From assembly GCA_963674865.2 (NCBI GenBank), contig CAXXYE010000004.1, forward strand, positions 709,632 to 773,631: 64,000 nucleotides of DNA. The letters run 5' to 3'. Shown one piece after another: positions 60,001 to 63,000 of the stretch. Source of the stretch: Candidatus Hydrogenedentota bacterium. Lineage in GTDB: Bacteria; Hydrogenedentota; Hydrogenedentia; Hydrogenedentales; SLHB01. Within the stretch, counting starts at the first letter, position 1, and the number at the start of each line of letters is the position of its first letter. Position numbers: made by a program.

Positions 60001-63000
60001 CTCGGCGGGATTCTCGCCGGCTACAAGGGCGTGAGAGAAGTTCATGGCCACGCCGACGTTTTTCATGGCGATCTCTTGGCACAACGACAAGGCCTTACCG
60101 ACGGAGGCCACGGTGAGGTGCTTCCGCGGTTCACGGGGCTTGTAGGCGATGGCAATGTTGATATCGGGGGAAGCGTACTTCGCGATGGTCTTTATGGAGG
60201 AGATCACCGTGTTCCAATGGGTGGTGTAATCCACCTGAAAGGGGTAATCGAAGCCATCACTGAAGAGACGGATGGTGACCTCTGATGCGCCGAGCTGGCG
60301 GGCGATATCCGCAGCCTTGCGCCCCTCGTCAATGGCGGCGTTGCGTGTTTTCTGGTGTTGGTGGCCGAAGGCGGCAAGGGCGAAACGCCTGTCATGGACG
60401 AGGTTGGTAGCCACGCTGGAACAGGCCAGATTGTACTCCTTGATGAGCCGCTTCAGTTCCTTTACCGGAAACTCCGGCGTGACGTCGGTCTGGGCGACCT
60501 CGACCGCGCTCACGCCTTTAAGCTTGGCCACAGCCGCGACACGCTCTTGTACGCGCATTGGCTCGCGGTAGCCTTCCGGACAGAAGCGGTCTGGGGTACC
60601 GGAGAAATTCGATAAGGCAACAGATATTTTTAGGGTCATCATCGTCTCCAGTCCTGAGAGAAGTTGCTCAGTTTCCCGCTATTCGCATGAAGCGAGATGA
60701 CGAATGCCGACGGTTACTCCACGCAACAGTCCCGGGCAAAGCACCCGCGCGGCCCTTCCGGCCGCTTGCCGACGGGACAATACCCTGGGAACTACCTTGG
60801 CCTCCTCTTTGGCCTCACGCCTTGCCGGCGCACGCGCTCACCCACGTTCGATTCCACGTGACTATAGTCACGAGCTGCTACGGGAATGGCGTCCCCGGTT
60901 GCCCTTCGGGCATTGAAACCAGGTGTTTGAGAGACTACCCAAGGTCCTGAGGTGAAAGGCTTTCAGTGAGCACATTCTAGTTAATTCGGCCGGGAATGTC
61001 AATAGTCTTGCTCGCACGCCCACCGAAGCGGCTACCCGCGCCGATATCACGCAAGTTATTGCCTACACAGGCGTTAGATATTATTACAGCGGTTCTGGTC
61101 CTGCCAAAAATGCGGCATTTTGCCCCGCCTTTGGCCAGCGGAGACATTGAGCAATGGCCGAAAACGGCTGCGTTGCCTTCTCACAGTATTATGGCTTTAT
61201 TTGAAAAGGTGGGCGTTCAGCGGGCTAGCCGGAATGGGGACGACGTGCTCGCGCCGGAGGGACTCTTAAGGTACCTGCCCGTGGTCGCGGAACGGCTCAC
61301 ATGTGATGGAGACTACAAACTGGGCGGATGGGCATCGTCTAAGGACTTGGAAACAGGGAACGGCGCATAAAAAAAAGGAGGCGAGTGCGGGCAGCGGGGG
61401 AACTACCACTCATGCACTCGCCGGTGGTGGGAACCAGTCATTGCTGACTGCAGTCAAGGGGAAACCCGGGGGAAGTTCCCCCGTTGACCGATTAAAGCAA
61501 CATGTCCCCCCCCTCCCTTATTCCCAAGTTCCAGAAAAAAATGAAACTTTCTTACGCGATCATAAATGACTTAAAATCAATAACTTAAGGCGCATAAGGC
61601 CGGATAAGCAGCGACCAACGAGAGAAAAAGACTGGAAAACGGCGGCCTGATAGTGCCTTTCGGCCGAGGAATCACGCGGTTGGGGTGGAAGGGCGCCGAA
61701 GAGCCCATTCACTTGTGGCTTCAAGAGGCCCATTTGCGGTAGCTTACAAGGAATGAAGACGAGCGTTCCTTAAGAGGAGATATCGGTACCTAACCCCTCT
61801 TCGGACTCCACAAGGCCTCTTCGAGTTGCCAGGCAGTGTTAGGTGTTGACAGGGGTCCTCGACGAGGGGTAGCATGCCGGGCCAAGTTTCTCTTGCACAA
61901 ACAGGGGCCGCTCTTGCGGGCAACGATGGTTGGAGAGATATCCATGCAGAAAGTCTTGACTCTCATATTGTGTTTGGTCTGTTCGGCGGTTCTGGCCGCA
62001 GAAGGCAACAGGATCCCTACTGGTGAAGCTACGCCTAAGCCGGGTGGCCCTGGTTGGGTCGATTTGCTTGACGCCGACCACACGGCGGGCTGGGAACTTG
62101 CCAAAGAGGGTGAGGGCGCCTTCACCATCGAGGATGGGGTACTGCACATCGCAGGTACGCGGCCGATGGGCTATGCCGGCTACATGGCCGAGAAGTATGG
62201 AAATTTCGCGCTCCACATCGAGTTCAAGACGGTCGCGGGAAACCAACAGCGGGGTGCTTTTCCGGGCGGAACGCAGCGATCCGCCGTTCACGGGCCTGGA
62301 AGTCCAGGTTCTGGACGACTATGGAAAGGACCCGTCCAAGCACAGTTGTGGGGTCGATCTTCGACGTAGCCACGCCGATGTTCAACCTATCACGTCCCAC
62401 GGGGGAGTGGAATTCCTTCGACATCATGTGCAAGGGCAAGCACTTGGAAGTGGTCATGAACGGCTGGAAGATCATCGATATCGACATGTCGAAGATGACC
62501 ATGCCCATCGGGAAGTTCGATACGCCTTACAACGACCTGCCTCTCGACGGGTATCTGTTCCTGCAAGACCACGGCCATGAGGTCTGGTACCGCAATATCC
62601 TCATCAAGAAACTGTAGAGCCCAAGAACGCGCGGGCCCCGCCCAACTCCGAGTGATTGCCTGCGGAGTTGGGCGGGGGCCGCGTTTCATTTGCTCTTGTG
62701 ACGGCTTACTCGTCAAGAAAGCCGTGTAGAAGTCCCAAGGGCAGGGAAGCAGGCCGGGGACAGGTACTGGCCACCGCCACGTGTGCGCCCGCCTCGGACG
62801 AGTCCAGGAACGAGTGCATCACGTCGAGGACATGGTACATCAGGTCGCCATTGGCACGGTGAGGACGCCCCGTGCGCAGGGCATAGGCCATGTCCGCGAC
62901 GCCGATTCCTCGGCTCTGCTCGGCGTAGCCGTGGGTGAGAGGCACTTCTTTTTCGCTCGTCACGCCCGCGTTGGATCCAACGGGGCCGCCAAAGCCATTC

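Follow-up and report, generated by a model that had tools for sequence, protein, structure and literature searches.

The closest described counterparts of the RNA analysed here are GsrN of Caulobacter and LhrC1-5 of Listeria. GsrN is a stress sRNA transcribed from an ECF sigma promoter and acting in peroxide stress, whose conserved, exposed C-rich loop pairs with a G-tract in the katG leader; its own features are dependence on EcfG/SigT and on Hfq, one key loop, and processing (PMC5869019). LhrC carries three redundant UCCC sites, in the first loop, a linker and the terminator loop, and binds independently of Hfq; it is multicopy, controlled by the LisRK two-component system, binds Shine-Dalgarno (SD) sequences and has two hairpins (PMC4132741). 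In RepG of Helicobacter pylori, the terminator loop, rich in C and U, base-pairs with a G-tract that lies a long way ahead of the ribosome site and is a phase-variable G-repeat, and the passages of that paper cited here report no ECF promoter (PMC8295292). RsaE/RoxS of Firmicutes pair several C-rich regions with G-rich mRNA sites but belong to Rex-controlled metabolism (PMC6158497; PMC5419742). The 6C RNA of Actinobacteria also has C-rich loops, namely two of six or more C, behind a SigA/SigB promoter and, in the passages cited, with no SigH signal (PMC5014011). SigH-type promoters have been reported before candidate small RNAs in Corynebacterium, at 44 start sites (PMC4046766), so that a link between a SigH promoter and a small RNA is not by itself a first.

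We analysed a window of 64,000 nucleotides from a Candidatus Hydrogenedentota genome (G000), in which a genome-wide survey's note had marked a minus-strand element as a trans-acting sRNA analogous to RsaE/RoxS. That analogy extends no further than the C-rich patches; with a promoter indicative of an ECF stress sigma factor, the RNA has closer analogues in GsrN and LhrC than in RsaE/RoxS. By analogy, the RNA would work most like GsrN, with the three-site layout of LhrC, while being a member of neither. It differs from GsrN in its SigR/SigH-type promoter, its three patches, the failure to find Hfq and the lack of any sequence or Rfam match, and from LhrC in being mostly single copy, in its ECF promoter and in an extra conserved hairpin. 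Like LhrC binding, its action may not involve Hfq, which was not found in the Hydrogenedentota genomes tested. Rfam likewise gives no match to 6C RNA, and the loops are C-rich on the transcribed strand, whereas CsrB/RsmZ sponges carry repeated GGA in theirs. We found no published description of the RNA in searches for Hydrogenedentota RNAs and motif catalogues, a novelty that catalogues available only as supplements could alter. The element would define a new family of RNA, one whose regulatory setting can be read, in a phylum that has been seen almost entirely through its genomes. It would also extend the C-rich layout of three patches beyond Firmicutes and Proteobacteria, apparently to a setting that lacks Hfq.

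Structure and conservation of the RNA

The minus-strand element at about 61494-61369 is almost certainly a genuine non-coding RNA gene. Its parts, in window positions, are as follows.

61519..61524, minus strand: −35 box GGAATA of a SigR/SigH-type promoter, the motif being present in 69 of 77 copies
61499..61501, minus strand: −10 box GTT, 18 nt after GGAAT
61369..61494, minus strand: sRNA of about 126 nt, from fold and covariation, with the 5' end placed from the promoter
61452..61489, minus strand: stem-loop 1, with covarying arms 52% conserved and C-rich loop 1 (61474-61466) 98% conserved
61435..61450, minus strand: stem-loop 2, of 6 bp, with 91% sequence conservation; missing in g34 forms
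61423..61434, minus strand: single-stranded linker holding C-rich patch 2, UUCCCACCA
61380..61422, minus strand: stem-loop 3, terminator-like, with an internal loop and C-rich loop 3 at 61402-61395
61369..61376, minus strand: U8 run, the RNA end, from the sequence

C-rich loop 1 reads UUCCCCCGG in the window. Folding of window 61368-61494 on the minus strand yielded three hairpins with z = −5.35, a value that none of 200 shuffles equalled, and the plus strand folded less well (z = −3.43). Across 77 aligned copies, G-U pairs outnumber A-C pairs by 182 to 34, which places the RNA on the minus strand; the position and strand given by the survey's note are therefore correct. The covariation that it had described was also borne out. 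When the copies were simply aligned with MAFFT, double changes appeared in 16 of the 30 pairs, a score that none of 500 shuffles reached, and 91% of cells were paired, compared with at most 42% in slid controls. A model-fitted alignment of the 77 copies raises these values to 21 of 30 pairs and 94.5% of cells, although such an alignment leans towards the covariance model.

Conservation is unevenly spread over the RNA. Folded singly, 49 of 49 copies form stem 1 despite the low conservation of its arms, and the C-rich cores are unpaired (p > 0.5) in 49, 46 and 49 of the 49, in agreement with the open motifs proposed earlier. Over the 77 copies the three cores are 96-98% conserved, against 52% for the stem 1 arms. 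The motifs had been called invariant; this holds for the cores (75, 75 and 76 of 77 copies) but not for the full motifs (27, 47 and 53 of 77). Stems 2 and 3 show 88-98% sequence conservation, which is more than base pairing alone needs. As for the proposed terminator of hairpin and U8, the U-run is present, while the hairpin was not called by a simple terminator scan.

The note's remark that all six frames contain stops was inexact, as five are stopped and one plus-strand frame lies open within an 88-aa ORF (61303-61569). A coding element was rejected: the spacings of the C-rich motifs occupy all classes modulo 3, so no reading frame is conserved. The reported lack of an Rfam family held up at E ≤ 10 over the element, and 20 homologous loci gave no match at E ≤ 1. 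On sequence comparison, the RNA is a new family absent from Rfam. Short-read contigs confirm the sequence of the window across the sRNA, a single variant contig carrying two differences that both fall inside the variable internal loop. A search for a further copy in the same genome returned nothing beyond two weak matches.

Promoter and distribution across the phylum

The motif G[GA]AA[TC]-N17-19-GTT lies directly upstream of the 69 copies noted above, compared with a background of 30 in 4690 windows. In all 49 family copies for which upstream DNA was found, G[GA]AAT-N17-19-GTT stands at a constant distance, with a spacer of 18 in 37, 19 in 11 and 17 in one. The promoter also accompanies 39 of 50 distinct metagenome copies, which partly come from the same organisms. 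It agrees with the SigR/SigH consensus GGAAT-N18-19-GTT, as given for SigR (PMC9205884; PMC2375139), and the sRNA is very likely transcribed from it. Of the eight copies lacking the promoter, one meets a contig end and seven belong to family f7, where the ECF promoter has decayed (L091, L095, L097, L105, L106, L108 and L117). By eye, the f7 copies have a TTGAC-type sigma-70 promoter some 60-190 nt further upstream, which would yield a 5'-extended RNA.

Conservation across the family, as first described, was confirmed by BLAST matches in 49 of 53 other family genomes. A covariance model (R1) built from 49 family copies matched 88 of 135 genomes of the phylum and 57 of 86 high-quality genomes. 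By family, the matches comprise f1 48/53, f2 6/6, f4 1/1, f7 12/14, f9 1/1, f10 11/15, f11 4/4, f12 1/1, f13 2/2 and one weak match among 23 genomes of f3; there were none in f8 (10 genomes), f5, f6, f14 or f15. The survey's note had counted seven families, and while presence beyond one family stands, the number rises to nine with strong covariance matches. A strict sequence pattern run over 185,579 species genomes returned 65 matches, most labelled Hydrogenedentota and the others Nitrospira-like or unclassified. Both of the oddest-labelled records carry the neighbouring gene of the phylum at 67-70% identity, and one of these loci is identical to a locus in the phylum set; no convincing copy outside the phylum was found with this pattern.

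Absence from f3 had also been claimed, and here part of the signal had been lost to insensitivity. Using the xylose-isomerase-like gene next to the sRNA as an anchor, we looked for the site in 47 genomes without an R1 match and examined 29 loci. In two further g34 genomes the promoter is present and the RNA is shortened, degenerate and devoid of hairpin 2, resembling the weak match in G064, and one f1 genome has its sRNA interrupted by a contig end; at the remaining f3 and f8 loci among the 29, nothing was seen at the sRNA site. The shortened orthologues at the syntenic site in genus g34 of f3 (L103, L127, L129) keep the promoter and the terminator stem, whereas hairpin 2 is gone and the C-rich loops are largely lost, forming a natural decay series. 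A second model, R2, run on 39 of the 47 R1-negative genomes, gave six weak matches, none with a promoter, which we judged to be chance or repeats. BLAST with the divergent f3 copy against 23 f3 genomes gave short matches only, one of which was the promoter upstream of a ferritin-like gene. In genus g28, the whole sRNA gene and its promoter occur as a tandem duplicate about 230 nt apart (L046, L048).

The SigH-like sigma factor, its putative regulon and candidate targets

About 40 sigma factors are encoded in the genome. On sequence grounds, the one most likely to read the sRNA promoter is the gene at C7:374776-375390, whose best PDB match is SigH (E 1e-44) and which is the genome's best match to TIGR02947, at 185 bits against a cut-off of 251 and hence below threshold. 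A SigH-like sigma factor of this kind occurs in 126 of 135 genomes of the phylum, including f3 and f8, which mostly lack the sRNA. It resembles the SigR-RsrA/SigH-RshA (ECF12) systems in promoter consensus, sigma sequence, thiol-stress genes and a weak start codon (PMC7826278; PMC5472188), but has neither an adjacent anti-sigma nor a self-promoter. A GGAAT-GTT self-promoter was found at 0 of 30 loci, and by eye a sigma-70-type promoter precedes the gene. No zinc anti-sigma lies beside it, all ten zf-HC2 matches being elsewhere, next to other sigma genes or their remnants; a lone orphan anti-sigma candidate was rejected as it follows a broken sigma gene. The sigma factor starts with TTG or GTG in 43 of 54 cases, and 46 of 54 have no clear SD. 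In Streptomyces, translation is also a limiting step for SigR, which however has RsrA as its partner (PMC5472188).

Several smaller features accompany the sigma gene. This genome holds a broken second copy with an internal stop (C8:288062-288517), several f7 genomes hold two copies, and none was found in viral contigs. Several f1 genera (L176, L178, L180-L183, L185-L187, L197, L244-L246) share a palindrome, GGGAATATTCC(C), at the 5' end of their sigma leaders, possibly an operator or a hairpin.

We scanned the genome, with our own gene calls, using a weight matrix from 68 relatives' sRNA promoters. Of 135 sites scoring at least 12, 65 are intergenic, although intergenic DNA makes up 12% of the genome. 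With spacers of 17-19, 33 of 174 motifs precede a gene start, versus 6-11 of 158-172 in four other spacer classes, so that the correct spacer is three to five times as frequent ahead of gene starts as the others. Family searches confirmed redox, thiol, Fe-S or metal genes behind 13 of 60 listed sites, a tally that is not an unbiased enrichment because the genes annotated (14 of the 60 candidates) were picked for a redox-like look, most of the others being diverse. The confirmed genes are two aldo-keto reductases, nifS-nifU, cysK, a thioredoxin-fold protein, Bcp, rubrerythrin, desulfoferrodoxin, glutathione peroxidase, zwf, a MntR/DtxR-like regulator, a HydE-like protein and a LarE-like protein. 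A strict promoter scan adds a peroxiredoxin gene, and one more gene behind the promoter is, from its motif, presumably a nickel superoxide dismutase. Of 13 nifS homologues, 7 have the promoter upstream, all of them among the 9 closest; for the thioredoxin-fold gene the figure is 7 of 30, little above the spacer controls at 1-4 of 30. Loose matches also lie upstream of two other ECF genes in the genome. The promoter set outlines a SigR/SigH-type oxidative stress regulon for Hydrogenedentota.

Two side observations concern single promoter sites. At C3:309318-309394 (L159), two back-to-back ECF-type promoters face Bcp and an unannotated divergent gene. In an f3 genome without the RNA, an sRNA-type promoter (L119:1502) precedes a gene that we take from its sequence to be ferritin-like.

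G-tracts in the leader of the sigma gene itself offer a hint of a target. We scored 90 of the 126 sigma-bearing genomes for GGGGG or GTGGGAA, a post hoc test in that the tracts were first noticed while reading sigma loci. The leader contains a tract in 37 of 57 sRNA-bearing genomes (shuffles 18.7 ± 3.2) and in 5 of 27 genomes without the sRNA (shuffles 5.2), counts that treat related genomes as separate though kin are not independent. With one genome per genus, the tract occurs in 24 of 40 sRNA-bearing genomes (11.7 ± 2.3; reached in 0 of 300 shuffles), against 4 of 14 (3.6) where the sRNA is absent. Two incomplete genomes (tract in 2/2) and four g34 genomes with degenerate RNA (0/4) were left out of these groups. 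Control leaders carry the tract in 10/53, 1/30, 1/13, 2/28 and 3/30 cases, the last window being partly coding, and 14% of intergenic leaders in the G000 genome have one. The signal lies mainly in f1 (29 of 40), with 8 of 17 against 5.1 in other families, and GC-rich genomes without the sRNA show a tract in 5 of 10.

The position of the tract varies, with a median of 63 nt before the start. Folding mostly predicts cis pairing for it, with a median probability of 0.29 of being unpaired, so that it could be no more than a hairpin arm. By eye, loop variants and target tracts showed no clear co-variation. Of 33 leaders, opening the tract made the start region more accessible in 7 and less so in 5; a structural switch was therefore rejected, and no sign of regulation can be assigned. 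By duplex energy with the sRNA, the sigma leader of this genome ranks in the top 13-41%. From their sequence, these leader tracts may be regarded as a candidate target, for which RepG, where either regulatory sign is possible, serves as a model (PMC8295292).

Modes of action and genomic neighbourhood

The RNA is probably a base-pairing regulator, and on balance we lean towards the fuller reading of an independently transcribed, GsrN/LhrC-like sRNA of about 126 nt that belongs to a thiol/oxidative stress regulon. We strongly infer that an ECF sigma factor of the SigR/SigH kind, most likely C7:374776-375390, reads GGAAT-N18-GTT and that the transcript ends at hairpin 3 and the U-run. Comparison of the copies shows that selection has kept the three redundant C-rich patches single-stranded while leaving the sequence of stem 1 free to drift. 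By analogy with the described systems, these patches would initiate base pairing to G-rich stretches of mRNA leaders with no part played by Hfq or ProQ (Hfq was found in 0 of 6 genomes tested and ProQ not in the one tested), and pairing would alter translation or decay; RNase E/G is present. RoxS activates through RNase J1 (PMC5419742), which was not found in this genome, and an RNase J route was rejected, with a weak partial match only.

The sigma factor's own mRNA leader may be one of the targets, with either sign. That the sRNA feeds back on its own sigma factor is nevertheless a tentative idea, which we consider rather unlikely. Equally speculative, and doubtful to the same degree, is that the RNA substitutes for the missing anti-sigma, the C-loops of a sigma-driven sRNA binding sigma-leader G-tracts in an Hfq-free loop. 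If the hint were true, the control of an ECF sigma factor that lacks an anti-sigma would have an explanation open to testing.

An unlikely alternative is that the RNA serves the same stress regulon by binding protein, titrating or scaffolding, for example, a KH-domain protein. Proteins of the KhpA/B type are present, as is CsrA, but CsrA binds GGA (PMC4132741), which the sRNA loops lack. Three repeated single-stranded C-rich motifs and the near-invariant sequence of stems 2 and 3 would suit a protein partner, an alternative that the LhrC paper also brings up (PMC4132741), whereas in GsrN, LhrC and RepG it is RNA that loops of this C-rich kind pair with (PMC5869019; PMC4132741; PMC8295292). The genome holds no long complement to the sRNA (one match of 13 nt and eleven of 12 nt, most of them within genes), which fits protein binding; the sigma-leader signal, which tracks the presence of the sRNA, speaks against it.

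Pairing could also be far broader, as the survey's note had it: a translational repressor like RsaE/RoxS, blocking the G-rich SDs of many mRNAs. UCCC motifs do act in this way in Firmicutes (PMC4132741), and GGGGGAG-type start regions occur in many genes, but G5 tracts show no excess in the last 25 nt before starts (2.3%, against 2.4-2.9% further up) and the common SDs of the genome are mostly AGGAG/GGAGG. The frequency of GGGAA roughly doubles close to starts (5.7%, against about 3% further up), yet the 70 best start-region duplexes among 3091 genes display no theme by eye. The claim gained little, and we think it quite improbable. What stands of the trans-acting sRNA first proposed is that, from its sequence, it is free-standing, with its own promoter and U-run; pairing through the C-patches is plausible by analogy.

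The sRNA lies in 1.3 kb without a recognisable gene, between the start of a xylose-isomerase-like gene at 60642 (minus strand) and that of a 3-keto-disaccharide hydrolase gene at 61944 (plus strand). The features downstream are as follows.

60974..61002, minus strand: sigma-70-type promoter TTGACA-17-TAGAAT of the downstream gene, separate from the sRNA
about 59693..60642, minus strand: xylose-isomerase-like TIM barrel gene (Pfam PF01261), the usual downstream neighbour, followed by an HflX-type GTPase gene

Similar TTGACA-17-TAGAAT sites are seen by eye in relatives' loci. That the next gene has its own sigma-70 promoter indicates a free-standing RNA rather than a leader, a conclusion supported also by the sRNA's own promoter, its U-run and the changed neighbours of some copies. 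Among 75 loci, the xylose-isomerase-like gene lies downstream in 59 and a divergent HEAT-repeat gene upstream in 39; we attribute this synteny to inheritance rather than function because the gap is variable and holds its own sigma-70 promoter. A cis-acting leader or attenuator of the xylose-isomerase-like gene, suggested by that gene's position on the same strand in those 59 loci, is very improbable, as the gap of about 120 to more than 700 nt is unconserved and contains the separate promoter, other copies face convergent or unrelated genes, tandem copies in two genomes each have their own promoter, and the gene retains its promoter where the sRNA is absent.

The xylose-isomerase-like protein is strongly conserved in the phylum, at 61-98% to an f3 copy in 39 of 47 genomes, and its gene often precedes the HflX-type gene. 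Three neighbouring genes in the window seem frameshifted by single-letter indels at 59772, 62237, 62350, 63191, 63248 and 63679, which short-read contigs do not share, so that these are assembly errors and not pseudogenes. A short palindromic repeat at 59567-59621 and near 63867, where contig depth is very high and loose ends are numerous, is probably a REP-like dispersed repeat.
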